DNA from: Candidatus Bathyarchaeota archaeon
GTDB lineage: Archaea; Thermoproteota; Bathyarchaeia; 40CM-2-53-6
Length of the DNA stretch: 64,000 nucleotides
NCBI GenBank assembly: GCA_963726255.1
Contig: CAVSBL010000002.1
Span: forward strand, 1,792,001 to 1,856,000
Reading direction: 5' to 3'
The translations under genes and the position numbers were made by a program. Positions 20,993-57,291 of the stretch are shown here, piece after piece; position 1 is the first letter of the stretch, and every line of letters starts with the position of its first letter. The notes under the pieces were generated by a model. That model was given only the letters and a program-made list of their open reading frames with translations. It had not been told where the DNA came from and made no database searches.

Positions 20993-21030
20993 TTTGTGTG
21001 TGTGCGCGCACCAGTGGACCCACACACAAA
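20993..21030 (+). repeat. Palindromic repeat family copy
   Basis: TTTGTGTGTG-TGCGCGCACCAGTGGACC-CACACACAAA with perfect 10-bp inverted ends. Confidence 0.85.
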
Positions 21031-40989: not shown

Positions 40990-41087
40990 CCCTTCCACCG
41001 CTGGCCTTCGAGCCAAAGTTCGCATGATGCTGGGTTAAGACCGAAAAGCTTCCGTTTGTTCGCTGATGTCTGAGCGGCAAATCAGAG

Positions 41088-41867
41088 CTACTTTCGCGTC
41101 ACCTTTCGGATCTCTGCTACCGCCTGCAATGCAGCGGATTGCATAAAGGCTGCTTCTGTCGAATAGGTCAGCATCGTCATTCCTCTGTCCCTCCAGTACA
41201 GCAAGTCTTCCATATTGGGTGTGTGAATGCCTGATGCCACTCCATATTTCTTACATGCTTCGACAACCTTTCCGATGGCATCGATAATCTTCGGATGCCT
41301 GTGTTCTCCTGGGACCCCAAGCGATACTGACAGGTCCTGCGGTCCGATTAAGGCAGCATCAACACCTTTGACCGACACAAGATCTTCAATGTTCTCGATT
41401 GCATTCACTTTTTCGATTTGTGGGATTAGCATTGTATCTTCGTTCTGTTCTTCCATACGGTCCCTAACGGATAGCTTCTCATAATCACCTACGACCGACC
41501 GGATACCGAACCCTCTCTCTCCCAAGGGAGGATATTTCGCAAACCTTACGATGTTCTCAACAGTCTCTCTGGTTTCAACACGTGGAATAAGGAGCCCCTG
41601 CGCTCCGGAATCGAGAGTTCGGGCCACCAAGTGGTACTGTGGATCCGCGATTCGAGCAAGACAAGTAAGACCTACCGCTTTGCCAGTCCTGACGATCTCG
41701 GTGAGACTTTCAAGGCTGTAAGCAGAATGCTCCATGTCAACAAAAATAAAATCAAAGCCTGAAGCTGCCAACAGCCGGGCAACTTCGGGAGTTCTCATCT
41801 CAATTATCATAGTTCCAACGACGGTCTGACCTTCGGCCAAAACTTGCTTGACCCGGTTCTTTTTCAT
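41088..41867 (-). CDS. HpcH/HpaI aldolase family protein
   Basis: 'GFDFIFVDMEH', 'LDSGAQG.LIP', 'KYPPLGERG', 'QIE', 'IGP.DLS.SLG'. Confidence 0.92.
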   Translation of the reverse strand: MKKNRVKQVLAEGQTVVGTMIIEMRTPEVARLLAASGFDFIFVDMEHSAYSLESLTEIVRTGKAVGLTCLARIADPQYHLVARTLDSGAQGLLIPRVETRETVENIVRFAKYPPLGERGFGIRSVVGDYEKLSVRDRMEEQNEDTMLIPQIEKVNAIENIEDLVSVKGVDAALIGPQDLSVSLGVPGEHRHPKIIDAIGKVVEACKKYGVASGIHTPNMEDLLYWRDRGMTMLTYSTEAAFMQSAALQAVAEIRKVTRK

Positions 41868-41868
41868 T

Positions 41869-42674
41869 TTACATCAACAGCGATCTGAGATAACTCGACG
41901 ACTTACGAAGCATGAATTCTGCGGTGGGCAACGGGAGGCACTCCACTGCGATATAGTCTGCGTAATCTAGGCTCTTCAAGGTATTGATTATTTCGCCGAA
42001 ATGGAGGCTTCCAGTTCCTGGAGCTTTCCTCTGGTTGTCTGCAAAATGCACATGAAAAAGGTAGGGCTTCGCTCTAAGGAGAGCAGCTGTTATACTGTCT
42101 TCCTCCGCGTTCATATGCCATGTGTCAGCGAGGATTCCAACCTGTGCCGACCCTAATTGTCCTAGGAATTTCACCGTTTCACCGACAGTGTTCAAGATGT
42201 TCGTTATTGTCTTGCTCATTGATTCGATTGCCAGACGAACACCATACTCTTCGGCGCTTTTCGCGCATTTTTGCATACATTCGTGGAACCAATCTCTCTG
42301 CTGCGCAGGGTCACCGGTCGACGCGATCTTGCCGCGAACTCTCCCTACAACAACCACTTTCACGTTGAGCTTAGCGGCTAGCTCGATGAATTCTTCCATT
42401 CGAGTCACAGTCTTCTCACGAATAGTTCTATCGGCATCTGTAAAGCTCCATCCTAGAGTGCTGTGTGTAAGGCCAGTGGTTAATGCCGAAATCTCAAGGT
42501 TGTGGGATCTGACGTTTTCTAGCAGCCTCGCATAATCAATTGTCGCTGGTTCAAGGATGTTGAGTTCGATTCCGTCGAAACCAGCGGCGAAACATCTTCA
42601 ATGCAGGATTCCAGTGTGCCGCTCAAACCCAGGTTGCTCTTACCTCCGGGAGTCGCGTACATAGCGATCTTCAT
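41869..42674 (-). CDS. Sugar phosphate isomerase/epimerase (TIM-barrel, IolE-like), frameshift at about 42590
   Basis: ATG 42674 (MKIAMYATPG...); after a 1-nt shift 'AAGFDGIEL', then 'LAIE', 'DTWHMN', 'HVHFAD..R..PG.G', 'VE'. Confidence 0.85.
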
Positions 42675-42720
42675 TTGTTTCACGTTTCTGATCGATTCTT
42701 TATTTCACCACTTTGGTATT

Positions 42721-44103
42721 TCAACGTCTGGCGAGGAGTTCGGGGGCTTTTTCTTGGATTAGAGGTCTGATGGCTTTGATGGTTTCTTTGGTTTGATCAA
42801 TAGTGAAGCGCACGTCTTCCGCGGATGTTACGGTTGAGATGTTGAACCATCCTTGGTTAAGCGTGAAGAAGGCGCCTCTGTTGAGCATTTCTAGGTCAAA
42901 GATCCATCTCACGTAAGCCTTTGATTGGCTCGCGCTCCTGTAATCTGTGATCTCTTTGCTTGTGAAGTACAGATTGAATAGTGAGCCGAAACCCGTCACG
43001 GTGCTCATTACTCCAGCGTCGGCAAACGCTTTGTTCATTCCATCACGCAACTGGTTGCCTCTTGAGTCTAACCGCTCATAGGTGGCAGTGTCTAGTTCAC
43101 TCAATGTAGCGAGTCCGGCAGCCATAGTTAGAGGATGCGCGTTCCAAGTTCCCGATGCGCCGATTCTAGGTCTTTTGCCTTCAGGAATTTCAAACAGTTG
43201 CATTGTTTCCTCACTTCCACCAAAGGCTCCAACGGGGAAGCCTCCGCCTATGTTCTTCCCGAAAACGGCCATGTCAGGTTCTACATGGAAGACCTTAGCC
43301 GCGCCGCCTTTGGAGAGTCTGAATCCTGTTACGACTTCGTCGAACATCAAAAGCACGTCATTCTCCTCGGTTATCTCCTTCAACCTCTTTAGGAAGCCTG
43401 CTTTCATTGGAGCGTATCCTCTTGGTTTTGCGAGTGGTTCGACAATGAGTACTGCGAGCTCATGCCGATTCTTTCTAATTATTTGCTCAGTGGTTTCAAT
43501 GTCTTCAAACGGCAGCACTACGGTATCGTTCGGTACGCTGCTAGGCATGCCCTCGCATTCCGGAACAGCGATTAGGTCAGACCCTTGCCCTGCTTTGTCG
43601 AGGGCTGGATTGACGCTTACGTAGACCGAATCGTATGTGCCGTGAAATTGCCCTTCAAATTTGGCAATCTTGCTCTTGCCCTTGTATGCCCTTGCCACTC
43701 TCAGAGCGTTCATGATGGCTTCCGTGCCCGTTCCTGCGAATCTCACTTTCTCAGCTGCGGGATAACACTCATGTATCTTCTCTGCAAGTTCTACTTCTGG
43801 TTCGGTTGGAGCGCCAAGCGCGGTTCCTCGCTCGAGTTGCGCTGCTATGGCACGCATCACCTCGGGGTGCTTGTGCCCAAGGATGAGCGATGATTGGTTG
43901 AAGCAATAGTCGATGCTTTCGTTTCCGTCCACAAAGTAAATGTGCGAACCAATTGCATGGTCAGCATAAGCTGGAAATGGTCTGTAGAACACCGCGTTCC
44001 TAGTCGTCCCGCTCGGCATAACAGTCCGTGCGCGGGCGTAGAGTACTTGAGATTTTGATCTTTGTGAAAGGAATTTCTTGATAGAACCAATAGTTTCCAT
44101 CAT
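42721..44103 (-). CDS. Class III PLP aminotransferase (HemL-like), second paralog
   Basis: 'ILGHKHP', 'GTEA', 'FEG.FHG', 'FDEVVTGFR', 'GKNIGGGFPVGAFGG', 'SGTWN..P'. Confidence 0.9.
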   Translation of the reverse strand: MMETIGSIKKFLSQRSKSQVLYARARTVMPSGTTRNAVFYRPFPAYADHAIGSHIYFVDGNESIDYCFNQSSLILGHKHPEVMRAIAAQLERGTALGAPTEPEVELAEKIHECYPAAEKVRFAGTGTEAIMNALRVARAYKGKSKIAKFEGQFHGTYDSVYVSVNPALDKAGQGSDLIAVPECEGMPSSVPNDTVVLPFEDIETTEQIIRKNRHELAVLIVEPLAKPRGYAPMKAGFLKRLKEITEENDVLLMFDEVVTGFRLSKGGAAKVFHVEPDMAVFGKNIGGGFPVGAFGGSEETMQLFEIPEGKRPRIGASGTWNAHPLTMAAGLATLSELDTATYERLDSRGNQLRDGMNKAFADAGVMSTVTGFGSLFNLYFTSKEITDYRSASQSKAYVRWIFDLEMLNRGAFFTLNQGWFNISTVTSAEDVRFTIDQTKETIKAIRPLIQEKAPELLARR

Positions 44104-44372
44104 TGATACGTTACCCGTACAAGTGGACCGCGACTAGGCGAGCATTCCGGCATATAGGGTAGCCGACATGCTTCCAGCCTTGAGAAAACTTCTGAATCAG
44201 AATTAGTGCCAATAGTAATGCAAGGAACTAGGGGTTGCGGATTGCGGCCTGTTAATTTTCAAATAGTGGTAATCAACATGGCGGTAGTCTCCTCGGGCCA
44301 GCCTTCCTCGGTCTTATCATTAACAAACGCCGACTACGTCTGAACGCAAGAGAGAAATTACTGAGGGTCTCC

Positions 44373-44888
44373 ATGGAAACAAGGCGACATCGGATGTCTG
44401 ATGCTCAAGCATTAGAAGGAATCGCGTCTTGCCGATTAGAGCGAATTGTTATCGGAAAATTGGCTATGAACACCGATCTTTTAGACGGAATCCTGGAATT
44501 GATCAGAAGGGAGAGAATCAGAACTGGGTTGATTCTGTCGGTTGTTGGGGCTTTGAGAGAAGCGACCTTTCGAAACGTCAAAACTATGCCTCCCAATTTG
44601 AAGGTGAAAAAAAAGCACCGAGTCTATCTAAAACTGGATCAGCAAATGGAATTAGTGTCACTTACCGGGTGGGTTGCAACAAAGCATGATGGTTACCCAG
44701 AAGTCCATGCCCATTTTTCTGTCTCCACAGTGGTTGATGACAAGGTTATGACGTTTGGAGGACACCTCACACGTGGGGCGATAACATCTATCAAAGTAGT
44801 TGTTGCCATCGGTGTTATCGAAGAAAGCGCCATCAAGGCAGTCATGGATTCTAGAATAGGCCAGGTAGATGTGAAACTGCCAGCCTAG
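44373..44888 (+). CDS. PPC/DUF296 domain protein
   Basis: 'VGAL', 'ELVSLTG', 'VHAHFS', 'GGHL..G'. Confidence 0.85.
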   Translation: METRRHRMSDAQALEGIASCRLERIVIGKLAMNTDLLDGILELIRRERIRTGLILSVVGALREATFRNVKTMPPNLKVKKKHRVYLKLDQQMELVSLTGWVATKHDGYPEVHAHFSVSTVVDDKVMTFGGHLTRGAITSIKVVVAIGVIEESAIKAVMDSRIGQVDVKLPA

Positions 44889-44949
44889 TAAACTGCACGT
44901 GTTGGAATTCATAAAGAATGAAATTTCGCTCGCTCAAATCCCCCAAAAT

Positions 44950-44989
44950 CACTACTGGTCGATGGGGGAAGAAGAGACTTCCTATGACT
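44950..44989 (+). repeat. 40-bp direct repeat, right copy (orphan SDR 3' end)
   Basis: Identical to 22868-22907; intergenic here. Confidence 0.95.
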
Positions 44990-45027
44990 TGAACGAGAGG
45001 AAAGTTCAAGCAGGAGCCCGAGAGTGG

Positions 45028-45813
45028 TTAACCTCTCCTCTCTCGTCTTAGAAGTTGGAATGAGACTGCATGGGTAAGTGCGCTGACGAGCATGGCTGAA
45101 ACGAACGCTAAGCCCACTCCCCAGTTAGTGATTGTTGCTGAGATGATCAGGAAGAAGATTATGAACGTGAAGGATCCAGCGACCACACCTCTCAGGAGTC
45201 TGATTGCATGCGCGCCCCCTTCAGACCGGTGAGTGAAGACCGCGAGAATCGTGGCGTACACCGGAAAAGGTGTAAGGAGTCCTGTTAACTATGGCCCAAG
45301 CCACTGGGCAACACCCGTAATCAGGAACACTAAAGCAGTGGCGGAAACCATACGCGCAGGGACCTCCCACCACCCCGTTCTCAGCGAGCTTCCCTCCAAG
45401 GTAACGTGAGGCATTAGCAAGAAGGTTATCAGAAGTACTCCGAAGACCGAAACGAAGCCGATTAACAAAGGCAGTTTTGTCGATTGGAGGAATAGTGTGC
45501 AGGCAAAGTAGGCGCATAAACCTGCCAGCAGGCTTAGCCGCCAGAAAAAGCGCGTAGCTGACCAGGTGTAAGCCAATGCGAAGGCGAATACTGAGATGAT
45601 CCCCATCATGATTGCTGCTGAGGCTGCGGAAGCGAAGGCATCTCCCTGTTCCAGGGCTAGGAAGAATGCAACCGGACCTGAAGTTAATGGCAACCCAATG
45701 AGCCAGCCACCAACGATTGGCCCCCATTTGCGGCTTGAGAGACTGACAAGGCCTATGAAAGTTGGGACAAGGAGTAGTTTGAGGAGAAGAATCATCCAGT
45801 CTGCGTAGATCAA
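45028..45813 (-). pseudogene. Multi-pass membrane protein with one in-frame TAG (45289-45291)
   Basis: Two tracked ORFs share a frame: ...WLGP*LTGLLTPFPVYA...; the halves are internally repeated (KWGP..GGWL.GLP vs WLGP.LTGLL.PFP). Confidence 0.7.
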
Positions 45814-45853
45814 TTTTGACTACTCGAAGAGGAAGCGTTCGAAGTGACTACTA

Positions 45854-45875
45854 GTGTGTGCGCGCACCATCTGAC
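45854..45875 (+). repeat. Palindromic repeat family, partial copy
   Basis: GTGTGTGCGCGCACCATCTGAC. Confidence 0.7.
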
Positions 45876-45911
45876 AGCCCCGAAGGCGAAAGGGGACCAT
45901 GACACAATGAG

Positions 45912-46607
45912 TCATGTGTCCTTGCCTTCCAGTCGGAGGTTCTCTAAGGTAATGTACATTACTGAATCTACTTCGTGTTTTGAGTACGAACCTACTCGAA
46001 TGGTCTTCTTGAATTGTGGGCTGTCTAGAACCACCGTATGATATTCTCCATTTTCTCCGCATATATCAAGCCCGGTCCGTCTACTGATTTCAATTAGCTG
46101 CTCTACTGAACTCGGGGAGAGATCCAATCCGAGCCATTCTTCTGTGAACCAGGGTTTCTTAACGCAAGAGAAAACTATCTTGAATTTGAGCGAGAGCAGT
46201 TTATTCAGAAGTTCAACCCTGTCTCGATGCCACAAAGGCTTGATGAGGTCAATGCCACAACGCGCACAGCGGTCCACCATCCAATCCGGATCGTGACCAG
46301 TGACTTCTCCAATATCCCCGGTTACCAGCGTACTAATTCCGCGCTTTTCCTTGAGGGAGGAGATTGCATCTTCATAGCCCACATCGAATGGCTCCTCAAC
46401 TTCTAATACGTAATGTGGAAGACCCAAAGCCTGCGCCTGAAGCGCCATGAAGCCGAGAGGGTGAGCAAGAAACATTTCCTGACTCGGAGCGAAAGTGATT
46501 AAACAGTCAATCATACTGCCTAACATTCTTGCTTCATACAGGGCTAGAGAGGAATCCTTGCCCCCGGTCCACGACACCGCCACTCTGGACATGTTGCCAG
46601 AAATCAA
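45912..46607 (-). CDS. Diphthine-ammonia ligase-like ATP pyrophosphatase (DUF71 family)
   Basis: PP-loop 'SWTGGKDS', 'GDI', 'PLW', 'DICGENGEYHT.V.D.P.F'. Confidence 0.88.
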   Translation of the reverse strand: MISGNMSRVAVSWTGGKDSSLALYEARMLGSMIDCLITFAPSQEMFLAHPLGFMALQAQALGLPHYVLEVEEPFDVGYEDAISSLKEKRGISTLVTGDIGEVTGHDPDWMVDRCARCGIDLIKPLWHRDRVELLNKLLSLKFKIVFSCVKKPWFTEEWLGLDLSPSSVEQLIEISRRTGLDICGENGEYHTVVLDSPQFKKTIRVGSYSKHEVDSVMYITLENLRLEGKDT

Positions 46608-46662
46608 TCACTTCACAATTTTAGCCTAATGAAGTGTCCAGCTGCGCGCAATTATCCGTCTT

Positions 46663-46694
46663 TTGTGCGTACCCTTAGTGGTGAGCACACACAA
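46663..46694 (-). repeat. Palindromic repeat family copy
   Basis: Reverse complement TTGTGTGTGCTCACCACTAAGGGTACGCACAA. Confidence 0.75.
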
Positions 46695-46749
46695 TAAAAT
46701 CGGTGACGACGTGAAATAGGGGAAGTAGGCGAGGAAGCCTAAGGAACCG

Positions 46750-47154
46750 TCAGTGTTTCATCTGTTTTGCTAGGTACGCTTCAACTTCTGCGAACTGCTT
46801 CTTGAATTTGTCAAAGTCAATGCTTGCCGCATGTAAGATGGCGCTCCAACCAGCTGTGAATCTTGCGAGAAAAGCGGTCTCGGCTATTTCATCATCGGTA
46901 GCGCCGTTCATTCTGGCGGCTCTTGTGTGGAAATGAATGCAGTACGGACAATGAATTGCAGATGCAACAGCTAACCCCATAAGCTCACGGTACTTGGCGG
47001 GTATCTTGGTTTCCGCGAAGGTGAATTTCTTCATCTCTGCCCATTCGTGGGGAAGTGCATCATGTGGAATCGCTGTGAACTGATCGAGCACTAAGCCCAT
47101 GGTTTTCTTGATGTCGTCAAGAGTATTCTCATATTCTCCCATTCGATATGACAC
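46750..47154 (-). CDS. Carboxymuconolactone decarboxylase/AhpD family protein
   Basis: 'KYRELMGLAVA....CPYCI.FH...A...GAT..EI.E'. Confidence 0.9.
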   Translation of the reverse strand: MSYRMGEYENTLDDIKKTMGLVLDQFTAIPHDALPHEWAEMKKFTFAETKIPAKYRELMGLAVASAIHCPYCIHFHTRAARMNGATDDEIAETAFLARFTAGWSAILHAASIDFDKFKKQFAEVEAYLAKQMKH

Positions 47155-47304
47155 CTCCTACTCCAATCTGCTTTCGAAGATTCGATTCACATCTCGCGAC
47201 TGTGCAGGAGACATGATGCGAAAGCACGTAACAGCAAGTGCTAGAAAGCAAACTCCACTAAAACGGCGCGCAACTATTTCAGAGTTTTCATTGCTCGTAG
47301 TCCC

Positions 47305-47329
47305 GTGGGTATGCTGGTGCGCACACACA
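47305..47329 (-). repeat. Palindromic repeat family copy
   Basis: Reverse complement TGTGTGTGCGCACCAGCATACCCAC. Confidence 0.75.
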
Positions 47330-47434
47330 GAATAGTCGGCAGCACACTATCTTTTCAACTTCACACCTGTACGTTGGGTGCTCCGAAACTATGGCGGTCA
47401 CATGGCCTATCGCTGACTTCTGTTTCTTTTCAAA

Positions 47435-47773
47435 TTAGGCAGGTGCTCCACAATGGGGGCATTGGTTTAACGTCTCTTCGAAGATTTGTCCGCAATTTCT
47501 GCATCGTATCTTCACAATTACCTCTCGTTGTATCGTTTCCTTCTCCTTGACCATTTCTGGAGCGTCTGCTTCAACTAGCTTCCAGCTCAGGGGCGTAAAG
47601 AGCGATCTTGCCTGAACTGCTAGAACATACCTCGTTGAACATTCCGAACAGACCACGTTAGGCATCGCAACTTCGAGCATGCGCCCGCCGTCTTTGGGGC
47701 ACCGAGACTTCTTGAGTGCCCTTTCGAAGTTTCTTCGCTGTCTTACCAATTGCCAGGACCGAGCACCGAACAT
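47435..47773 (-). CDS. Small double zinc-ribbon protein
   Basis: CPKD/CSEC and CRNC/CPHC pairs; 'KEKETI.REVIVKIRC' tail. Confidence 0.7.
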   Translation of the reverse strand: MFGARSWQLVRQRRNFERALKKSRCPKDGGRMLEVAMPNVVCSECSTRYVLAVQARSLFTPLSWKLVEADAPEMVKEKETIQREVIVKIRCRNCGQIFEETLNQCPHCGAPA

Positions 47774-47856
47774 ATATCGTGAATGTTTGGCGGCGCTATA
47801 AATGCCCTAGCATATTTTCTCGGAAACTGGAAGACCCCCAGAACTTTCAGGCATCT

Positions 47857-47888
47857 TCGTGTGCGTACCACTAGAGGTACACACACGA
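47857..47888 (+). repeat. Palindromic repeat family copy
   Basis: TCGTGTGCGTACCACTAGAGGTACACACACGA. Confidence 0.75.
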
Positions 47889-47933
47889 GAAAACCTAAAG
47901 GGGGTAACGTACGGTCCCTGTTAGTGTTCAGAG

Positions 47934-48707
47934 TTGGCGGGCCAGGAACGAACCGACATTCCTCTTCTGCATGAATTGCTCCCCGACGACGTAAGGCTTG
48001 GGACCGTTTTCGCAGTTGAATTTGATCCTGTTTCGCACTGGTTTGCCGTAGCGGCAAGTATGGTTGTAAGTTGGGTGAAGAGCGGCCGACGTGCGGGGTG
48101 GGTTGCGATGGCCCGCCCTAGGGAAGACGTCAGAAATGACCTAGCGAGGTTGGGGGTAAATGTGCTTGAGAGCGAGAGAGCTGGAATGTTGCTCGTAGAC
48201 GACTGGCATTCTGCAACTTTAGGCTTGGAGCCCGTCTCTGGCCTTGCCAATGAAATCGTTGAAGGAGAAGGCGGACCTTACAACCGGATACTTTCGCTAA
48301 AGGTTTCGGATTGGAGTGTGCACTTCTTGAAAATGGTGAAGGAGGGTTTGAAGGATGTTGGAGATGACTGGCCTCTCGGTGCACTCGCCATCGCCGATTC
48401 TATTTCACCTGCCCTTAGATTCAACGATGAGAAACCGTACCTTGAGTGGTTAGAAAACAGGGTGAACCCTTGGCAACGACGGAGCATGGGAGTTACATTT
48501 CAAGGGGTAGTTAGCGGGCTTCATTCCGAGTTATTCTACAAGCGGATGGAGAACACTGCTGATGGAGTAATGGACGTGAAGGTAATGGAACGCGAAGACC
48601 AAACCAAGAATTATCTGAGAATCCGCGGTTTCAAAGGTCAAAGGTACGACAGCAGTTGGCATGAGATAGACATCAAATCAAACGGTGAAGCAATTCTGAG
48701 CAGCTGA
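47934..48707 (+). CDS. RecA-superfamily (KaiC/RAD55-like) domain protein with degenerate Walker A
   Basis: 'T.IP.L.ELL', 'IADSIS', 'ADGVMD.K........NYLRIR..KG'; the Walker A position reads EFDPVSHW. Confidence 0.7.
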   Translation: MAGQERTDIPLLHELLPDDVRLGTVFAVEFDPVSHWFAVAASMVVSWVKSGRRAGWVAMARPREDVRNDLARLGVNVLESERAGMLLVDDWHSATLGLEPVSGLANEIVEGEGGPYNRILSLKVSDWSVHFLKMVKEGLKDVGDDWPLGALAIADSISPALRFNDEKPYLEWLENRVNPWQRRSMGVTFQGVVSGLHSELFYKRMENTADGVMDVKVMEREDQTKNYLRIRGFKGQRYDSSWHEIDIKSNGEAILSS

Positions 48708-48718
48708 GCTTCCTTTTC

Positions 48719-48751
48719 GTGTGTGTGCGCACCATTGGACCCACACACAAA
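48719..48751 (+). repeat. Palindromic repeat family copy (closest to consensus)
   Basis: GTGTGTGTGCGCACCATTGGACCCACACACAAA. Confidence 0.85.
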
Positions 48752-48762
48752 CCTATCAGGAC

Positions 48763-48866
48763 AGTCTGGTGGTGCGAGGAACTGAATTTGAATCGTGAGC
48801 ACTAGACACACAAGAAACACCCCGGTTCAATTTCTGGGGCTCGCACCATCAGACCCACACACACAA
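48763..48866. repeat. Inverted pair of tRNA-3'-end-like/repeat hybrids
   Basis: 48763-48796 (minus: ACGATTCAAATTCAGTTCCTCGCACCACCAGACT) and 48824-48866 (plus: GGTTCAATTTCTGGGGCTCGCACCATCAGACCCACACACACAA). Confidence 0.7.
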
Positions 48867-48960
48867 CCTTAGTTTCGGTCGCACGAAGGTTCTATTCGGT
48901 TCCTGGTAGATCAAAGGAATCAGAGAAATATGGGAAGCGAGCATCCTCAATCGAGTAGGT

Positions 48961-49383
48961 GTGAGAATGAAGGAAATTAGTACGAGCCAAGAGAAGAAAG
49001 AGAAGAAGATTGCACTCAGTTTCTTCAGTTTGATTGCCCCTCCTGAAGGACCGATGGCCGCTTTGCGCATTTTTGATCCAAAATGCAGGCATCACAATCC
49101 TTACAGTGCTCCCGGAATGAAAGCGCTATTCAGGGAGATGGCGAAGGTGCAGCAAGACATGGAGGCGAACGAAATGCCGCGTGATCCAGTCTTCCAAATC
49201 AAGCATGTGCTGGTAGATGGAAAGATGGTCGTCATCCATACTACTCTGCAATCCAAATCGAAAAGAACGAGAGGCTTCAGGCAAATCCACATGTTCCGTT
49301 TCAAGAGGGACAAGGTTGTCGAGTACTGGGATGTAACGCAGAGCGTGCCAAAGGAGGCCAAGTATCCGAAGAACATGTTCTAG
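48961..49383 (+). CDS. SnoaL/NTF2-like protein
   Basis: 'HHNP....G', 'LVDG.MVV.H', 'FRF...KVVEYWDV.Q'. Confidence 0.82.
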   Translation: MRMKEISTSQEKKEKKIALSFFSLIAPPEGPMAALRIFDPKCRHHNPYSAPGMKALFREMAKVQQDMEANEMPRDPVFQIKHVLVDGKMVVIHTTLQSKSKRTRGFRQIHMFRFKRDKVVEYWDVTQSVPKEAKYPKNMF

Positions 49384-49481
49384 TAAAGTTTCAGAAACAT
49401 CTCCCAATGAATTAGGGAGACTATTTTTTGAAGCAAGGGCTGGCCGTAATCTGAGCCATCTCGTTTGTCGTCGTTCTCATT

Positions 49482-49519
49482 TTTCGTGTGTGTGGGTATA
49501 GTGGTGCGCACACACGAAA
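49482..49519 (-). repeat. Palindromic repeat family copy
   Basis: Perfect 11-bp inverted ends TTTCGTGTGTG/CACACACGAAA; reverse-complement core CGCACCACTATACCCACAC. Confidence 0.85.
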
Positions 49520-49537
49520 CCTGTTCGACTAGACATC

Positions 49538-49942
49538 CTAGAGTTCCGTGACGATCTCTTTAACAAATTCGAAGTGAGGAATGGTTTTCTCTTCTGCCAA
49601 CGCGATCAGCCCCTCTCGGATTTTCCTCGAACGCTTACTATACTTGGGGAGCAAGGTTGTGAGATAGACTAAGCCAACTGCTAGAATTGATCCTGCAATC
49701 AACAGGATCAAATATGAACGGGTTTCGAGGCTGTTACTCAAAACTCCCTGAATTATTATGCCAAGGGCCACTCCTAACAGTACAGCGAGAACCCCCAAGA
49801 GCCTATTCAACGTCTCAGAGCGAGACTGAACACAAATCTGCAGAACATCAAGCTGCCATCGTCGCTCTTCCAAGTCAGAGTCCAAGTTTCTACCCGAACG
49901 TATTTTGCCTTTTGGGCGTATTTGGTTTCTGTTAAGTCTCAC
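49538..49942 (-). CDS. Hypothetical two-TM membrane protein
   Basis: 134-aa ORF with two hydrophobic helices; no family recognised. Confidence 0.55.
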   Translation of the reverse strand: MRLNRNQIRPKGKIRSGRNLDSDLEERRWQLDVLQICVQSRSETLNRLLGVLAVLLGVALGIIIQGVLSNSLETRSYLILLIAGSILAVGLVYLTTLLPKYSKRSRKIREGLIALAEEKTIPHFEFVKEIVTEL

Positions 49943-50282
49943 AGTGGTGTGGTGGTGGGTCAGCTGGTGCTCCCATCAGATCTAATTCTTCCTGTAACGG
50001 TTTTCGCCAAGTTGCTGCCACAAGTGCCACTATGAGTATGAGGAAGAGTACGCCAGCCACAGAAACCAGGTTCTGCTTGATCGGATTTGTTTCCGTCCAG
50101 CTTGTGCTCACGTAGGGCACACAATATTCCGGGCATTCAGGGTCTTGTTCAGTTATGAGAACGGCGACGGGCTGAGACGGTGCAATTACCACCGCTAACG
50201 CTATTATTCCCTCGGCCAGCAGGAGGATTGTGATTACCTTCCACTTTCTCGCAGTCATTTGCCTCTGGGAGCGCCGTTCCAT
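49932..50282 (-). CDS. Hypothetical two-TM membrane protein
   Basis: 116-aa ORF with two hydrophobic helices flanking a CPEYC loop. Confidence 0.55.
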   Translation of the reverse strand: MERRSQRQMTARKWKVITILLLAEGIIALAVVIAPSQPVAVLITEQDPECPEYCVPYVSTSWTETNPIKQNLVSVAGVLFLILIVALVAATWRKPLQEELDLMGAPADPPPHHCET

Positions 50283-50454
50283 GTTATACGCTGTTGGTTA
50301 TTTCCGTACTTTAACTGAGTGGGTATTCGATTTCGCCCGCTGCTCTAAGGCCGTAATCAATAGCGCATAGTTGGGTCACAGCGCAGGTCTCTCGCCCAGT
50401 CCGGTGCGGAGCTGATCTCTTTCTTCTTCGTCGTCGTTCCTCGTTACTAAGAAT

Positions 50455-50497
50455 GTGCGTGTGAGTCTGGTGGTGCGAGGGACTGAATTTGAATCGT
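50455..50497 (-). repeat. tRNA-3'-end-like/repeat hybrid; direct repeat of 48763-48796
   Basis: 50464-50497 matches 48763-48796 at 33 of 34 positions; the minus strand continues ...CGCACCACCAGACTCACACGCAC. Confidence 0.8.
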
Positions 50498-50582
50498 ATC
50501 ATTGGCTTGGGTTCGCGTGGGCTTGCGAATGAAGGTTTAATTGCTTGTGCAGGCGTCCACCGCATACGGGAAGGCTATTACT

Positions 50583-50762
50583 TTGTCTAGTGCGCGTGAA
50601 AAGCGGCGTAAACGTGAAGCGCCTATGCCTGCGGCAAGTGCAGGTTTGCTCCGGTTCTTCGAGGAGGATACGCCGGGGATTAAGGTTCCGCCGGAAGTTG
50701 TGGTAATGTTCTCCATAGGCCTCGTCGCGGTAAGCCTCTTCATGTACTTGACATTCAAGTAG
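50583..50762 (+). CDS. Preprotein translocase subunit Sec61beta
   Basis: 'PAASAGLLRFFEEDT.GIKV.P' followed by a C-terminal TM helix. Confidence 0.9.
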   Translation: MSSAREKRRKREAPMPAASAGLLRFFEEDTPGIKVPPEVVVMFSIGLVAVSLFMYLTFK

Positions 50763-51777
50763 CGACTTCTCTGAAGTCCAAGAGTTTCGTCTGGGCTACG
50801 ACTGGAAGCGCACTCGCCCTAATGCCCAGCCTACGTTCTATCATTGTCGGCAGCACGTCCGTATAACCGGTGAAAACGTACACTTTCTTCGGGTTTACGC
50901 TGCTCACAAACTGGATCAACTGCTCGTAGTCCGCATGGCTGCTCAATGGGAAGGCGGCGTATCGGCGGAAAGCCATCCGCAACGCCCAACCAGTCGCTAC
51001 GGCGCGCGAAGCATTACGCGGCATTCGCTCCGAGCTGGTGGTCACGAAAATGCAGCCGCCCGCTTTCAACGCGTGCTTACCGTCCGCAGTGGAGGAGTCT
51101 AAGTAATCGAGTGGGAGGCCGTTCTGGTCATGGGCACTGTTGGCGCGGGCTATGCCGACACTGCAGACGACGGGAACCTTCGTGTACACGTTGAACAAGC
51201 GAACTAGGTCTTGTGGTTTTCCGGAAGAGTAGACTTGGAAGGTTGGAACTTTTCCTTCCTTCAGTTCAGTCGTGGTCCATCTAATGATGTCAGCGTAGAT
51301 TGTGCTCCGTTTCGGAAAAACGTACGACGGATGCCCATATGTTGCTTCAATAACTAAGTAATCGCATGACTTAGCCTCAGCCGCGCGCGTTGTCAACGTA
51401 TCCACACAATTAATGTCCCCCGTGTAAACGGCCGTGAACTCAGGAGTGATGACTTCGAATTGGCAGGAACCTAACATATGGCCGGCGTCAAGGGCTCTGA
51501 CTTCAACACCATCGAAGTGAATTGAGTCGCCAATTTTCAAGGTATGTGCGTTCTTAACTTGGCGGTTTTGAAGCGATTCGAAAATTCGAAGCGTCTCAGG
51601 CGTAGAATGCTTCTTGGCGGGTGTGGTGAAGCCGTACGTGTGGTCAGAGTGCGCGTGGGTTACGAACACGTCCCAACCGTCGCCTAACGGCCTGCCGCTC
51701 GTAGGGTCGAAAATCAAACGTGAGGGTCCAGTATTGAAGGATATTCCGTTGGCCCACCCGATTCTTTCCTGCCGCAA
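50755..51777 (-). CDS. Metallo-beta-lactamase fold (beta-CASP-like) nuclease
   Basis: THAHSDH, 'AGHMLGS', 'YTGD', 'EATYG', 'LSSHADY'. Confidence 0.88.
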   Translation of the reverse strand: MRQERIGWANGISFNTGPSRLIFDPTSGRPLGDGWDVFVTHAHSDHTYGFTTPAKKHSTPETLRIFESLQNRQVKNAHTLKIGDSIHFDGVEVRALDAGHMLGSCQFEVITPEFTAVYTGDINCVDTLTTRAAEAKSCDYLVIEATYGHPSYVFPKRSTIYADIIRWTTTELKEGKVPTFQVYSSGKPQDLVRLFNVYTKVPVVCSVGIARANSAHDQNGLPLDYLDSSTADGKHALKAGGCIFVTTSSERMPRNASRAVATGWALRMAFRRYAAFPLSSHADYEQLIQFVSSVNPKKVYVFTGYTDVLPTMIERRLGIRASALPVVAQTKLLDFREVAT

Positions 51778-52047
51778 GGACAGCTTCGCTCTTGACTCAA
51801 CGCTTCAACGCTACGCCAACTTCTGGGCGATACGGCTTCTTCCCCGAATGTGTCTATTAGCGCTTTGTCCGCTCTCTTCAAATCTTAGCCGATGATTCGC
51901 GCGTTCCTTCGTGGAGCCGTCTCATCACATGACAATGGATGTGACCTAAAGCTTGGACAGGTGGGTGAAGACGCATCTTGAGAATGCACTCTATGCATCG
52001 GTCGGCTATGCGATGATTTGAATGCACCAACGCCGGGCGTTCTTTTC

Positions 52048-53604
52048 TCATTTCGTTAGCGTTCTCTTCCTCAGGTAGGCTCGCCAGGTCATGGCTAACT
52101 TCGCAGGGTCTTCTAGGTTGGCGTCGGGTATTCTAGCGATCGAGGAATTGTGAGGGGCGGTCTTCACTAGTTCTGGATTTGAGTACGCTTCCTTGGAGAT
52201 TTCGGCTAATACTGCAACCCAATAGTCAATGTCCGCCTTCGAATATGTCTCGCAGGGTTCCGGAGTGAAGGGTTCAGGCACGACCCAGGGATGGTGGCTA
52301 AGCCAATAGGATTGGACGCCATAGTCTACGACCCTACGTATGACGTCTTGGGCTCCAACTCCCGTTTCTTCGCGTAGCTTCTCTAGGCTGTACCTGATTT
52401 GGTCGAGGCGCCTATTCGTTTTGTATGGTTTGGTTACGCCTGTAACTGTGAGTAGTTTCTTCTCAAGGTAGTTGTTATTTATCATGGAGATTTCTGCCAC
52501 TTCCCTTAATCCGTCTGCCCCCATGCTCATTGCCCAAGCGTAAGCCCTCAACACGATCTGGACATTGCCATAGAAGTCGCGGACTTTGCCGATGCTGTGG
52601 GGCCTATCATAATCAAGGTGGTACCTATCTCCATCGAAGGTTACCACAGGAACTGGAAGGAATTTTGCTAATTCCTGTTTGACACCAACGGCTCCGCATG
52701 CGGGCCCGTAAGACCCGTGCGGCGATGAGAATGTTTTGTGAAGGTTGAAGAAGCACATGTCGAACCCGGACTCTTTAGCCCTTGAGACGCCCAACAGAGC
52801 GTTTGCGTTTGCTTGGTCGTACGCGCACAGACCGCCTGCCTCGTGCACCATCTTGGTCCACTCGTCAATCTCGGGGTTGAAGATCCCTGTGTCCTCAGGG
52901 TTTGTGGTCATCAGCCCAGCTGTATGCTTGGAAACTGCAGCCTTCAGCGACTCCGTATTCGGAAACCCGGTTTCCCCATCGGGGTAGAGTGTTATGACCT
53001 TGAACCCCGCGGTTGCTGCGGTCGCGGCGCTGCTGGGGTGAGAGAAGATAGTCGTGATTATTTCGTCCCGCTGTCCAAGTTCACCATTCAACTCGTGGAA
53101 TTTTCTAATTATGCATGCGTTGGTATAGGCAGCTTCGTTGCCGCCTCCAGCATGGAAGACAAACTCGTCCAACCCGGAGATTTCTCTCAGGAAGACATAC
53201 CCAAACTCGTAAACGATCTTCAAAACGCCCTGAATCGTTTCTTCATCCTGAAGCGGATGGATTTCGGCAAGTTCTTTCACTAGATCTTCGTTGACCTTGG
53301 GGCTGTATTTCATCGTGCACGTTCCTTCTCCTAAGTCGATGTTGAAATCCATTCCAAGCGTCTGCTGGGAAAGGCGCAGGTAGTGTCTCAGAACGTGGGG
53401 CTGGGAGAGTTCAGGTAGGCTAGGCGGCTGTTTCCTTCGCATGGTGGTTGGAACAAACGCCATGGCATCGCCGACCGCGGCCCTAACCTCTTCTTCAACT
53501 TCTGGGATGCGGATCCCTCTTTCCCCTTTGCGTCCCATCGACATTATGACGGGTTCGCTCCATACTGGTGCGTGGTATCTTCTCGGGGATTCCTGAGCTT
53601 TCAT
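52048..53604 (-). CDS. gcvPB: Glycine cleavage P protein subunit 2-like
   Basis: 'LPELS....LRHY.RLSQ', 'GTCTMKYSPK', 'TNPE..G.F', 'DQANAN', PLP lysine 'NLHKTF..PHG'. Confidence 0.88.
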   Translation of the reverse strand: MKAQESPRRYHAPVWSEPVIMSMGRKGERGIRIPEVEEEVRAAVGDAMAFVPTTMRRKQPPSLPELSQPHVLRHYLRLSQQTLGMDFNIDLGEGTCTMKYSPKVNEDLVKELAEIHPLQDEETIQGVLKIVYEFGYVFLREISGLDEFVFHAGGGNEAAYTNACIIRKFHELNGELGQRDEIITTIFSHPSSAATAATAGFKVITLYPDGETGFPNTESLKAAVSKHTAGLMTTNPEDTGIFNPEIDEWTKMVHEAGGLCAYDQANANALLGVSRAKESGFDMCFFNLHKTFSSPHGSYGPACGAVGVKQELAKFLPVPVVTFDGDRYHLDYDRPHSIGKVRDFYGNVQIVLRAYAWAMSMGADGLREVAEISMINNNYLEKKLLTVTGVTKPYKTNRRLDQIRYSLEKLREETGVGAQDVIRRVVDYGVQSYWLSHHPWVVPEPFTPEPCETYSKADIDYWVAVLAEISKEAYSNPELVKTAPHNSSIARIPDANLEDPAKLAMTWRAYLRKRTLTK

Positions 53605-55010
53605 TTTGATACCTCCTTCAACGCGTCGACAAGTCTCAGTATGTCGTCTTTTGTATGGGTCTCAGTGACGCAGTACAAGCTGCTGTTTCCGAGTTCTGGA
53701 AATTCCCGGAAGATGTCTTTTCCTCCGAAGATTCCTCGTTTCAACAATTGTCTGTTTACTTCAGAAACGCGCGTTTTGCTGTCGAATGTTACCACGAATT
53801 CCTTGAAGAAGGTTTGAAATGGGATCTTGACGCCCTTTACTTCAGCCAACTTTCGGGCCGCGTAATGCGATTTCCGCAATATCGTCTCTCCGAGTTCCTT
53901 CATACCCGCGGGACCCATGAGCGCCAGGTAGACTGCGCTAACTATCGTCCACAGCCCAGCGGCCGTTCCAACCCAGTCTTTCGCTTTATCTCTACCAATG
54001 TACGAGGTTCTCTCGGCCATGCAATAGGCGAATGCGCATTCGCCTCGTACGGTTTCAGTAATGGTGACTAGGTGTGAGGGATGTTCGCCAACGAACTTCT
54101 TTTCGTCGGGGCAGGCTAGAAAACCTGCAAGGCTACCGCCACAAAACATGTGGTTGCCGAGGGGTTGAATCTCACCGCAGACAATATCCGCGCCATAATC
54201 CGAGGGAGGCGAAAGCACACCCAAGGAAATGGGGTCTACGCCAACTATACATTCGGCACCGCTTTCATGGGCAGTCTTCGAGATTTCCTGGCCGTTGGCT
54301 TCGATAACCCCGAGGTATGACGGGTTCTCGAAGTAAACGCCCGCTGTCTTAGACGAAATTTCTCTCCTGAGGTGGTTGAGGTCGAGCATGCCGGTCTTGG
54401 GATCGTTGCTGATTGTTTTGACGTCGATGTGGTTTGGCATTGCTGCCGGGCCGCAAAAGTTGCGTATTATTGCGAATCGGTCTGGGCTTATGGTGCGTGA
54501 GACGAGAACCTCTCTTCTGCCCGTTATCCTTGACGCCATTCTAATCGCGTTTCCGGCTGAGGCGCCCCAATCGTATGTGGGAAGGCCGACTACATCCATT
54601 CCCACCAGTTCCCCAATCATACTCTGAAACTCGAAGAATGCTTGATGCTTGCCTAAGTCTGAGTATTCGTCGCCGCCATAGGCGGTCAGAAATTCCGCTC
54701 TTCGAGCAATCTCATCGCAGACGGCTGGCACATAATGCTTCCAGCAACCTGCCCCAAGAAAACTCAGGTTCTTGTTGCAATCGATGTTTCTCGATAAGAT
54801 TTGTTCCACATGCCGTCTTAGGTCGGCTTCTGCGGCGAGGGGCTTCGGGAGGTTCATTCGGTGTTTGAGCCTTAGCCTGTCGGGAATTATTTGAGCGTAG
54901 AGTGCCTCACTGTTCTCCACCCCGATTTCTTTGAGCATCTCCTGCTTTACTTCAGAAACGGAGTTGGGCATGTACGGATGGGCGCTGTGTTCGGTCAGTC
55001 TGAACACCAA
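53601..55010 (-). CDS. gcvPA: Glycine cleavage P protein subunit 1-like
   Basis: 'HPYMPN', 'FLGAG.W.HYVP', 'R.EFLTAY', 'FEFQS', 'GADIVCGE.QPLG', 'CVTE'. Confidence 0.88.
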   Translation of the reverse strand: MVFRLTEHSAHPYMPNSVSEVKQEMLKEIGVENSEALYAQIIPDRLRLKHRMNLPKPLAAEADLRRHVEQILSRNIDCNKNLSFLGAGCWKHYVPAVCDEIARRAEFLTAYGGDEYSDLGKHQAFFEFQSMIGELVGMDVVGLPTYDWGASAGNAIRMASRITGRREVLVSRTISPDRFAIIRNFCGPAAMPNHIDVKTISNDPKTGMLDLNHLRREISSKTAGVYFENPSYLGVIEANGQEISKTAHESGAECIVGVDPISLGVLSPPSDYGADIVCGEIQPLGNHMFCGGSLAGFLACPDEKKFVGEHPSHLVTITETVRGECAFAYCMAERTSYIGRDKAKDWVGTAAGLWTIVSAVYLALMGPAGMKELGETILRKSHYAARKLAEVKGVKIPFQTFFKEFVVTFDSKTRVSEVNRQLLKRGIFGGKDIFREFPELGNSSLYCVTETHTKDDILRLVDALKEVSK

Positions 55011-55033
55011 GTGTTGAAGGCGGTGGATTCCTC

Positions 55034-56182: not shown

Positions 56183-56538
56183 TGGCTGAACCTCGGAGCG
56201 TTGTCGCGGCTGCATTAGTATCCGCTCGCAGCGCCTACCTCTAATGAACGTAGTCTGCGTTTATCAGGCGTGACTCTCGCAAATTGATATGATAGTGCAG
56301 TTTTGCGAAGTGCTGTCACTTCGTTGCATGAACAGTAGACCGTAAACTGGCGTTGGAAAATCACGATTTGAGGTAAAAAGCCTTGAATACCATAAGACAT
56401 CTTGAATCGAAATCACCTAATCCTAATGAGTACGAGCATCCAAATTTGAAACGTCGTGAAGAGGCATTTTTCATGTGTGACTCCCCGGGGACTCATGGTC
56501 AAAACGGACCTAGTTCGGAAAAATCCTCGCGCGGGCAG

Positions 56539-57162
56539 ATGAGATTGCTGCCGAGGGAACACGGCGCAACCGCGATCTGGTTCTCCTCGGTGTTGCTCGC
56601 CTTTGGAATGCTCCGGGAGCCGCCATGGACCCCTGGTGCCGTTGTTTTCCTAGCAGCCTGCGTACTCGCGCTGGTCCTCATAGGACGGCTCACCAGCGGC
56701 TCTATAGTCGTCGTCCGCTTGGAGCGGAATCGAACTCTGCTCCCGGTTCTTTCTGGTCTCCTGACCTTGATCGTCCCGTTAGGGCAGATAATCATGGTCG
56801 GACAGCTCTCCCTTCCAGTCCTTGCCGCCTGGCTCATCTTCCTGACTTATTGTTCATCAGGAGTGGTGTACACGCGAGACTTGGTTCGTTCGGTGCTGAA
56901 GGAGGTGTCACCCACGTGGACCAGCTTCAATCTCTCCGTAGTCTTCATTGTTTCCGAGGTTGTCACACTAAACGCTGTCAACTGGCTTTCCATCGCCACC
57001 GTAGCCATCATTGTGCCGTTGACCGTTTACCGCGTCGTCGTTCTGTCGCTAATTCAACGAAAAAGTTCCTCTAAGATAGAACGTATTCGCGGAGTGGGCT
57101 TCGCGCAGACCGGGAACCTGATAGCCGCGACCATTATCCTCGCCTTGGTTTCGAAACTCTGA
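56539..57162 (+). CDS. YwiC-like membrane protein
   Basis: 'LPREHGA' N-terminal motif, multiple TM helices, 'R.VG..Q' near the C-terminus. Confidence 0.6.
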   Translation: MRLLPREHGATAIWFSSVLLAFGMLREPPWTPGAVVFLAACVLALVLIGRLTSGSIVVVRLERNRTLLPVLSGLLTLIVPLGQIIMVGQLSLPVLAAWLIFLTYCSSGVVYTRDLVRSVLKEVSPTWTSFNLSVVFIVSEVVTLNAVNWLSIATVAIIVPLTVYRVVVLSLIQRKSSSKIERIRGVGFAQTGNLIAATIILALVSKL

Positions 57163-57264
57163 AACAGCCCCTACGCCGACTCCCCTACGAAGCTCGCAAG
57201 AATAGGCTCAGCATGAGTGTGCTTGAGGTGAGCGTGTCCGGACCGTCGTCGGTTCGTTCTAAAA

Positions 57265-57291
57265 GTGTGTGTGCGCACCATTAGACCCACA
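57265..57291 (+). repeat. Palindromic repeat family copy
   Basis: GTGTGTGTGCGCACCATTAGACCCACA. Confidence 0.8.

Follow-up and report, generated by a model that had tools for sequence, protein, structure and literature searches.

Do the short repeated sites that separate small genes in the genome of an uncultured archaeon mark the borders of exchangeable gene units, and by what means would such units be moved? The question is raised by an array at positions 45854 to 50497 of a stretch of DNA from a Candidatus Bathyarchaeota archaeon, hereafter called the window (64,000 nucleotides [nt]; C2:1792001-1856000, i.e., contig CAVSBL010000002.1 of assembly GCA_963726255.1, here G000, which comprises 2.42 Mb in 5 contigs and is 98.5% complete); positions without a contig name are window coordinates. 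The initial annotation had described the array as unrelated small genes separated by copies of one palindromic site and had proposed a gene capture and shuffling system distinct from classical integrons, with its recombinase acting in trans. According to the evidence presented below, the sites form the borders of gene units that vary and can be exchanged, and they are missing from intergenic DNA of the conserved core. This points to a so far undescribed route of gene shuffling in archaea in which a short site marks swappable gene units. Hardly anything has been established on the ways in which Bathyarchaeia acquire and exchange accessory genes. A conserved, searchable site of 18-28 nt marking module borders would give a direct handle on the flexible gene pool and would offer a testable recombination substrate in an uncultured lineage that, by the account in PMC10541130, is among the most abundant archaea of sediments.

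Two classes of sites with a common core

All nine sites of the initial annotation were recovered at their positions (Table 1), and the site motif is far above chance in the window: GCACCANNNGACCCACAC has 7 matches with at most 2 mismatches versus 0.16 expected, and a 14-mer has 13 matches with at most 3 mismatches versus 5.2 expected, numbers that were each reached in 0/100 shuffles. The motif is not limited to the array as first pictured; the window holds two extra copies, and 76 sites were found genome-wide at E<0.05. Common to all sites are an oriented core and right arm, CGCACCA-N3-GACC-CACACAC(AC), with N3 being variable. Class A sites have GTGTGTGTG as their left arm, which mirrors the right arm, and form hairpins with stems of 7-13 bp; their consensus allows the reading GTGTGTGCGCA / CCAyyA / GACCCACACAC (11-6-11), with 8/11 arm positions symmetric as judged by eye. 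In class B, which does not fold into a hairpin, the left arm is (ACGACG)GTTCAAATT-N5-TGCyC and resembles the end of a tRNA from the T-loop to the CCA. Six of the nine array sites are thus palindromic class A copies, in agreement with the original description, whereas those at 48763, 48823, and 50455 are non-palindromic class B copies that have the core in common with the others.

Sites are confined to variable DNA

G000 was compared with 874 kb of its closest well-assembled relative, G015, which yielded 668 reciprocal best hits (median amino acid identity, 83%) and 512 adjacent collinear gene pairs. Among the short conserved intergenic gaps, a site was present in 0/414 in either genome; the sites are therefore confined to lineage-specific DNA, and the gaps in which they do occur all differ in length between the two genomes. 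Among the outcomes that the initial annotation had named as refuting its proposal were sites equally common between core genes and gene order conserved in relatives; the former is not the case, and the latter does not hold within the array.

The 414 site-free gaps bear on two rival explanations. The first regards the sites as selfish repeats of the repetitive extragenic palindromic (REP) or miniature inverted-repeat transposable element (MITE) type, which reached dispensable intergenic DNA by their own transposition, the variation of cassettes being secondary and due to homologous or slipped recombination. REPs are commonly located between core genes, where no site was found; class A sites do have the expected appearance of short, extragenic, hairpin-forming palindromes, but class B sites have the same core and are non-palindromic and non-folding. 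The second explanation regards the sites as binding sites (insulator, terminator, operator, or 3'-end RNA element) of a factor that recognizes DNA or RNA and travels with accessory genes, mobility being due to ordinary recombination. Given their absence from the conserved gaps, the sites are not a general terminator or promoter.

The array was said to end just before the core gene Sec61beta, and synteny agrees with this in both directions. G015, G014, and G004 keep the order Sec61beta followed by genes for proteins of 340, 192, 101, 193, and 546 amino acids, and none of the genes at 39880-50282 lies beside Sec61beta in these three genomes. Other genes, without sites, are found there in G015 and G014, and two class B sites directly adjoin Sec61beta in G004. 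The site at 50455-50497 is common to the window and G004 and absent in G015 and G014; divergence begins just past its CA arm, and all four genomes are alignable from approximately 25 nt to the right of the site. At the other border of the array, homology with contig C54 of G002 stops inside site 45854, just after GTGTGTGC. Two further examples lie outside the window: the first base of a class B site at C2:1297176 is the point where homology with G015 stops, and at C2:1562122, homology resumes inside a degenerate class B site, the tRNA-like arm being present in the "empty" G015 locus, too. Breakpoints at or inside sites, in line with the initial reading, were seen at 45854, 50455, C2:1297176, and C2:1562122, whereas several others lie 40-400 nt away from a site or have none (see below). 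At the six island borders that were inspected, which do not amount to a systematic count, the tRNA-like arm of class B points towards core DNA and the CA arm towards the island. As a separate observation, the flanks at G000:C2:450500-451097 and 453557-454130 are 97% and 93% identical in DNA sequence to G015, compared to the median protein identity of 83%, which suggests a recent exchange of that neighborhood between species.

The same cargo recurs in other contexts

The cargo genes of the array lie on both strands and are functionally unrelated from gene to gene; the gene labels given initially were borne out by Pfam search. Genes of the window cassettes occur on unrelated contigs of relatives within the genus, with DNA identities of 92% for DUF71, 86-87% for AhpD, and 89% for the zinc-ribbon gene, versus 80-82% for adjacent core genes. 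The 92%-identical DUF71 gene lies on another contig of G002, and a copy in G008 has sites on both sides. AhpD is present in two copies on different contigs of G004, each with sites on both sides, and has flanking sites in 3/3 contexts; the similarity of the two G004 copies begins approximately 10 nt ahead of the ATG, includes the 3' spacer and the entire class B site, and ends at the outer end of the tRNA-like arm of this site. The zinc-ribbon copy, on contig C16 of G004, lies beside one class A site. No flanking sites were found for a 67%-identical DUF71 copy in G017 or for two KaiC-like copies.

KaiC-like paralogues are the commonest cargo in the genus. In G000, 5/8 listed copies lie within 57 nt of a site, and in G017, a strict site lies within 80 nt in 7/22 among the matches listed. 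This divergent ATPase family is expanded, with 27 matches in G017, 20 in G013, and 9 in G000, and many copies across the genus (e.g., in G017 and G013) have a site 20-80 nt past the stop codon. It is recurrent as an array family in this genus alone; genus g12, which is site-free, has members of the family, and genus g15, which is rich in sites, has almost none.

Variants lacking cassettes in metagenomes

Contigs from four metagenome runs, three of them from one study, were aligned to window positions 42000-60000; the material consists of assembled contigs, not reads. Joints with 35 nt or less on the shorter side (e.g., 47328->57264 and 48749->57272) represent matches to other site copies and were not counted. 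The joint 47861->48808, found in two runs with 57 nt on the shorter side, loses the KaiC-like cassette together with its two downstream sites, and the 27 nt that are left constitute a class A site; this variant could not be derived from the reference by one simple exchange, the strains being several events apart. In one run each, and with 40 nt on the shorter side, the joint 46693->48825 loses the AhpD, zinc-ribbon, and KaiC cassettes and thereby connects site 46663 with the class B site of 48823, and the joint 48864->48823 represents a tandem duplication of this class B site. The joint 56265->57603 is present in two runs from two studies (62-83 nt on the shorter side); the missing segment, 56266-57602, forms the right 1.3 kb of a 5.8-kb block, its right end being the core border and its left end having no recognized site. 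This block (51778-57602; open reading frames [ORFs] of 518, 469, 393, 61, and 259 amino acids) is located between core genes that are adjacent in G015, G014, and G004.

Distribution of the sites in the genome and the order

Genome-wide profile searches were built from clear copies, ten matches on real tRNA 3' ends being removed first. They gave 61 sites at E<0.001, the above-mentioned 76 at E<0.05 (44 class A, 32 class B), and 89 at E<0.5, the last group falling into 35 clusters. A neighboring site within 3 kb was found for 55/76 sites, compared to a mean of 13.3 and a maximum of 28 in 1000 random placements. Outside ORFs of at least 100 amino acids lie 61/76 sites, with the genome being 84% coding by the same crude map; 55/76 sites are located within 150 nt of a stop codon and 45/76 within 150 nt of a start codon, versus 30% of random points in either case. 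These fractions are approximate, since the gene map consists of longest-ORF calls made without a gene finder. Typically, a site lies 10-110 nt beyond the stop codon of a module gene. The 36 inter-site segments measure 172 to 3590 nt, and most of them therefore hold one gene.

The proximity to stop codons is in line with the binding-site explanation, as are T-runs beside many class A copies, hairpins that would form in RNA, and the likeness of the class B arm to a local promoter box (GGTTTAATTG before Sec61beta). For an intrinsic terminator, however, the T-run is on the wrong side, as it is located before the stem and not behind it, and as a promoter, the class B arm would have its downstream gene facing the same way in just 11/21 cases. 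The sites follow no orientation rule, homology ends coincide with them, the cargo served by a supposed common factor is functionally unrelated, and no Rfam family matched at E<=1 across 45000-51500. We therefore regard a regulatory or RNA-level function as the source of the pattern as very unlikely.

A search of the order with the strict core (at most 1 mismatch), for which reversed-pattern controls were near zero, revealed a patchy distribution, with matches in 45/105 genomes: 20/22 in the genus of G000 (g1), 10/10 in genus g15 (up to 56 copies), 1/22 in genus g12 of the same family, and scattered genomes of three other families. Both site classes are present in other families. The arrays fetched from g15 carry a cluster of class A and B sites at nearly every gene border, and their cargo is diverse, with almost no recurrent family among 332 array proteins. 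Both classes also recur in distant genomes rich in AT, where the spacer hardly varies (AGG, then TACC) and a third arm type composed of TCG repeats is present. In G028 and G098 (loci L103, L108, L115, L122, and L127), many of the sites are found at a distance of 80-160 nt from a contig end and form part of a longer palindromic unit of approximately 110 nt with the outer boxes CTTTAGATAATTAC / GTAATTATCAAAAG. This repeat evidently breaks assemblies; the sites are thus misassembly-prone spots in metagenome-assembled genomes (MAGs), with matches accumulating at contig ends.

Likeness to tRNA genes and a possible mechanism

Some of the tRNA genes end in the same sequence as the shared core (...CGCACCA). 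In class B, the distance from GTTCAAAT to the final CCA is exactly 16 nt, the same as in the tRNAs of this genome, in which this span comprises the T-loop, T-stem, acceptor strand, discriminator, and CCA, the latter being encoded by the tRNA genes. T-stem-like pairing of class B amounts to -2.74 versus -2.01 kcal/mol in chimeric controls, a modest excess that was reached by 3/500 shuffles. G028 and G098 each have a real tRNA gene, which contains an intron and ends in GGCCGCACCA, with AGGTACCCACACAC immediately behind it; this combination of a tRNA and the right arm is a class B site occurring naturally at a tRNA.

Direct descent of the sites in G000 from a tRNA gene was considered and rejected: the window contains no tRNA, 0/35 ARAGORN calls end in GTGCGCACCA or CCCTCGCACCA, and 0/28 tRNA calls of up to 220 nt have a site within 600 nt downstream, sites overlapping tRNA ends having been removed beforehand. 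The tRNA genes of G000 mostly encode CCA; many ARAGORN calls require long introns, and several calls of 1-3 kb are probably artefacts. In addition, the tRNA 3' end at G000:C2:925620-925647 (..GTCCGAATCCCGGCGGCCGCACCACTTCT) is repeated at 928853-928879, 3.2 kb downstream, which is the classical mark left by integration into a tRNA gene and is found here in a genome that lacks integrases.

In bacterial and archaeal elements, the attP of tRNA-targeting integrases is established to copy the 3' part of the tRNA, according to PMC8371274. Since the core corresponds to a tRNA end and class B copies the 3' part of a tRNA, the family can be read as attachment (att)-type sites bounding single-gene modules. 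We see roughly even chances that the sites are att-type sites derived from tRNA 3' ends that bound integrase-less modules moved in trans. The ancestors of the repeats would then be 3' ends of tRNA genes ending in ...CGCACCA, and the core plus right arm may be read as 11-6-11, the geometry of a tyrosine-recombinase core site. As observed, the sites bound small modules without an integrase, mostly of one gene, which accumulate in the variable DNA separating core genes. A recombinase provided in trans would pair two sites and exchange strands at the core, upon which the module would leave as a circle and could re-enter at another site or a suitable tRNA end. The likeliest source of the recombinase would be a tyrosine integrase carried in by a virus or integrative element. 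Recombination between inverted sites would flip the segment in between, which would explain the mixed orientation of the genes. As G000 has no such enzyme, its arrays would at present be passive substrates.

A rival explanation takes the same tRNA likeness as a relic. The sites would be inert scars, i.e., attL and attR leftovers of many independent tRNA-targeting integrations whose other genes have decayed, with accretion and erosion at hot spots and no cassette system. The tRNA-derived left arm, the integrases of the virus-type family that adjoin tRNA ends ...CGCACCA, the direct repeat of a tRNA 3' end around 3.2 kb (C2:925620 and 928853), and the absence of an integrase from G000 are all as expected of such scars. 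Yet an 18-nt core and the CA arm are kept across the families of the order, and spacers are near-identical within some genomes, a conservation that would be hard to keep without selection or ongoing homogenization. The scar explanation is also at odds with the site clusters at nearly every gene border of the arrays, with single-gene modules of 0.2-3.6 kb, far below the size of integrative elements, with recent presence/absence variants that end at sites, and with class A, which has no tRNA part. We consider it improbable, though less so than a regulatory role.

A more far-reaching version of the att-type reading is tentative and, in our judgment, rather doubtful: a chromosome-wide exchange of cassettes in Bathyarchaeia of this order without a resident integrase, in which dozens of sites per genome that mimic tRNA ends would hold single-gene modules available for exchange and for which the recombinase would be supplied transiently by viruses or elements or would belong to an unrecognized enzyme family. 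If this were true, infection would double as a trigger for reshuffling and exchange of accessory genes across genera, and the system would be a functional counterpart of integrons that evolved independently in archaea from tRNA att sites.

Recombinases, viral sites, and evidence against the att-type reading

An exact search of IMG/VR with the core gave four matches. Two of them are true class B sites in tailed-virus records, each near the end of the record; the remaining two (L149 and L150) contain neither arm type and were taken as chance. On one tailed-virus contig, a tyrosine integrase of 363 amino acids (PF00589, 37 bits) with a C-terminal zinc ribbon starts 260 nt from the class B site, with tail genes on the far side and a KaiC-like fragment beyond the site; this integrase is encoded at L147:12390-13481, and a chromosomal relative with 50% identity at G011:C1:532002-533024. 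Homologues of this integrase were found in 23/105 genomes at 30 loci, of which 2 have non-tRNA class B sites, 6 have tRNA 3' ends CGCACCA, and 22 have nothing in the 1.5-kb flanks. Another integrase gene of the genus is followed, 70 nt behind the stop codon, by a class B site, and altogether an integrase stands beside a site on the one viral contig and at three chromosomal loci (L044, L182, and L184). With a tRNA-like arm and a copy carried by a virus, the sites seem to descend from ordinary att sites and not to represent a wholly new principle; of the initial proposal, the variable units bounded by sites, the reuse of cargo, the variants lacking cassettes, and the absence of attC ends stand.

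A series of observations weighs against the att-type reading, and the first group concerns the enzyme. No PF00589 tyrosine recombinase was found in G000 even at E<=10, with 14/14 controls detected, nor an SSV-type integrase, Cas1, or a serine recombinase above the cut-off, nor a Y1 transposase (PF01797) at E<=1. The absence of a recombinase from the window, as first noted, thus extends to the whole genome for the families tested; being devoid of tyrosine recombinases of any kind, G000 also has no XerA-type chromosome resolvase. PF00589 is present in 19/23 genomes of the genus and absent from four site-bearing ones (G000, G007, G006, and G012). Tyrosine recombinases do not track the sites, since these four genomes and two of g15 (G063 and G067) have sites without an integrase, and G031 and G009 have integrases but no strict site. 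In G002, 0/10 integrase matches lie on a contig with a strict site, and integrases of the relatives are not beside arrays. Among the homologues of the viral integrase, the five closest have no site within 1.5 kb, and a 49%-identical viral integrase has none within the 3.7 kb examined; the second viral record has no recognizable integrase by its site. Of the suggested recombinase acting in trans, the part that stands is that none is linked in cis; a recombinase whose presence follows the motif was not found.

The second group concerns the DNA itself. Of the gaps that are at least 400 nt longer in G000 than in G015, 6/41 contain sites and 35/41 none; for gaps longer in G015, a G015 site is present in 1/16. 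The 5.8-kb insertion (~51800-57602) is siteless at its left end, and its right end at 57603 is 310 nt from a site; the borders at C2:451097 and C2:453557 have no site within approximately 400 nt; and two 96%-identical gene copies (C2:121.7k and 476.5k) lose homology approximately 100 nt short of the nearest site. Relative to the adjoining genes, 49 intergenic sites are oriented 26 versus 23, i.e., without a rule, and module-flanking sites are direct in some cases and inverted in others with no consistent pattern; the modules do not have the direct repeats around each element expected of tRNA-att integration. Excised circle junctions were not seen in the contigs of the four runs. Furthermore, the run richest in matches may be the MAG's own sample, with a second run coming from the same study.

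Several other candidate enzymes were rejected. Casposons, SSV-type integrases, and serine recombinases were not found. Y1 transposases are present in 13/105 genomes of the order, 1/22 in the genus, and do not track the sites; a recombinase or HUH/RAYT (REP-associated tyrosine transposase) enzyme that tracks the motif, for which the initial annotation had suggested a survey, was not found. G000 contains two intact TnpB (Cas12f-like) genes (G000:C2:48356-48550 and 338131-338328) and no Y1 TnpA; both are far from any site, and a TnpB/IS605 origin was discarded. Nor did a hidden enzyme emerge from recurrent array genes, the top families of which, KaiC-like ATPases and zinc alcohol dehydrogenase, are both cargo; no recombinase was within the most frequent 25 of 118 Pfam families from 112 array proteins.

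Because no enzyme was identified and some breakpoints miss the sites, the selfish-repeat explanation is still alive and is the main rival. The lack of a cognate recombinase and the homology breaks away from sites are to be expected if the repeats move by themselves, as are their occurrence in both orientations without a rule, the frequent tandem or head-to-head pairs, and the palindromic units of approximately 110 nt at contig ends of AT-rich relatives. Such repeats would, on the other hand, call for a Y1 or RAYT gene, of which G000 has none and which in the 13/105 genomes of the order does not track the sites. At the two cleanest indels, among the few loci looked at, there is neither a target-site duplication nor a clean insertion of a lone site; AhpD is accompanied by its flanking sites in 3/3 contexts, and two genera have the right arm joined directly to a real tRNA end. 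On balance, we judge the selfish-repeat explanation unlikely, albeit the strongest of the three rivals.

Features of the window

The features of the array and its surroundings are compiled in Table 1. In addition, a conserved ACGACGAC(G) box is located at a distance of 10-25 nt on the outer side of the CA arm and immediately 5' to the arms of class B. This box lies to the right of many sites, e.g., at window positions 49440-49480 and 50420-50445 and at G000:C2:871060-871075, occurs in other families, and constitutes the arm of the third site type, (TCG)n-GCACCA, in G028, G098, and the viral record G106.

Table 1. Sites, cargo genes, and neighboring features in window coordinates
Feature	Position	Strand	Remarks
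Further class A site	20998..21030	+	Elsewhere in window
Class A site	45854..45880	+	Left arm and core; right CA arm absent; left border of array
DUF71 cargo gene	45912..46607	-	PF01902, DUF71/diphthamide-synthase-like ATP-binding protein, 231 amino acids, E 1e-34
Class A site	46663..46692	-	One end of contig joint 46693->48825
CMD/AhpD-family cargo gene	46750..47154	-	134 amino acids, Pfam
Class A site	47305..47328	-	14-mer exact; right arm partly lost
Zinc-ribbon cargo gene	47435..47773	-	112 amino acids; all Pfam matches below cut-offs
Degenerate class A site	47857..47886	+	E 8.6; hairpin, z -4.5; one end of joint 47861->48808
KaiC-like ATPase paralogue, cargo	47934..48707	+	257 amino acids; weak Pfam match, E 1e-4
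Class A site, best copy	48719..48751	+	GTGTGTGTGC-GCACCA-TTG-GACC-CACACAC; E 2e-8
Class B site	48763..48796	-	tRNA-T-loop-like arm and core, CA arm absent; half-site next to it at 48797-48812
Class B site	48823..48866	+	E 5e-10; 51-nt inverted repeats with 50446-50496; end of joint 46693->48825
SnoaL-like cargo gene	48961..49383	+	140 amino acids, Pfam
Class A site, extended arms	49482..49519	-	13-bp stem; z -4.8
Two small membrane/unknown genes	49538..50282	-	134 and 116 amino acids
Weak site-like copy	49952-49975		E 0.44; between the two membrane genes
Class B site	50455..50497	-	Right border of array; tRNA-like arm towards core gene
Sec61beta, core gene outside array	50541..50762	+	True start probably internal ATG
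Further class A site	57264..57291	+	Near right end of 5.8-kb lineage-specific insertion (~51800-57602)

Comparison with known systems

In full-text searches of the literature, neither the motif nor cassette arrays in Bathyarchaeia were found to be described; supplementary tables, such as the attC lists of PMC9668308, lay outside the scope of these searches and might bear on this point. Integron cassette arrays, including CALINs (attC clusters lacking an integrase), have been reported from archaeal MAGs (Ghaly et al. 2022, PMC9668308). As described there, they resemble the present arrays in consisting mostly of small genes that occur singly, are unrelated, and have an imperfect palindromic site behind them, in the recurrence of the same cassette in different arrays, and in the many arrays without a nearby integrase. 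In contrast to attC, which has a variable center and conserved ends, the sites in Bathyarchaeia have a conserved center and variable flanks, and they measure 30-45 bp with arms conserved in sequence. The ends typical of attC are absent, as initially stated, with RYYYAAC near the 5' end in 1/76 sites and GTTRRRY near the 3' end in 0/76. Genes and sites are mixed in orientation, one site class is tRNA-armed, and there is neither an IntI nor an attI platform; instead, many arrays are scattered over the genome (35 clusters). The system is not an integron.

The dif/pdif modules of Acinetobacter plasmids are moved by the chromosomal XerC/XerD; pdif sites of approximately 28 bp with an arm-spacer-arm structure bound gene modules in either orientation, the recombinase being unlinked. 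The sites of the Bathyarchaeia family can be read as arm-spacer-arm units of similar length, approximately 28 bp, and the family shares with the dif/pdif system the site-bounded modules, the lack of a linked recombinase, and the occurrence of the same module in different contexts with bounding sites, as seen for AhpD, DUF71, and KaiC-like genes. Unlike in Acinetobacter, the genome has no Xer-type or other tyrosine recombinase, the sites are chromosomal and number approximately 90, a second, tRNA-armed class exists, and orientation does not strictly alternate.

REP elements and the composite BIMEs (bacterial interspersed mosaic elements) are paired with RAYT transposases. They resemble the sites as short extragenic palindromes that are clustered, occur in both orientations, and lie near gene ends. 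Here, in contrast, a RAYT/Y1 gene is missing, core intergenic DNA is free of sites, variable genes are bounded, and class B is non-palindromic.

In accretion of the CIME (cis-mobilizable element) type, integrase-less elements with flanking att sites are mobilized by a helper; the modules described here likewise have no integrases. With the tRNA att sites of PMC8371274, as characterized in that source, the family shares a core consisting of the last bases of a tRNA gene and a class B arm that copies the 3' part of the tRNA; in two genomes, a real tRNA continues directly into the right arm, and a viral integrase adjoins a class B site. It differs in that the modules are single genes and not elements of 5-100 kb, that dozens of sites per genome lie mostly away from tRNA genes, that the palindromic class A has no tRNA part, and that sites are inverted as often as direct.

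Taken together, the family resembles integron cassettes, pdif modules, and helper-mobilized att-flanked elements; it does not qualify as either of the first two and agrees in part with the third. What sets it apart is the tRNA-mimicking arm, its conservation across the order, and site-rich genomes without any recombinase. It would represent a second, independent example, besides integrons and pdif modules, of short-site gene capture with the enzyme in trans.

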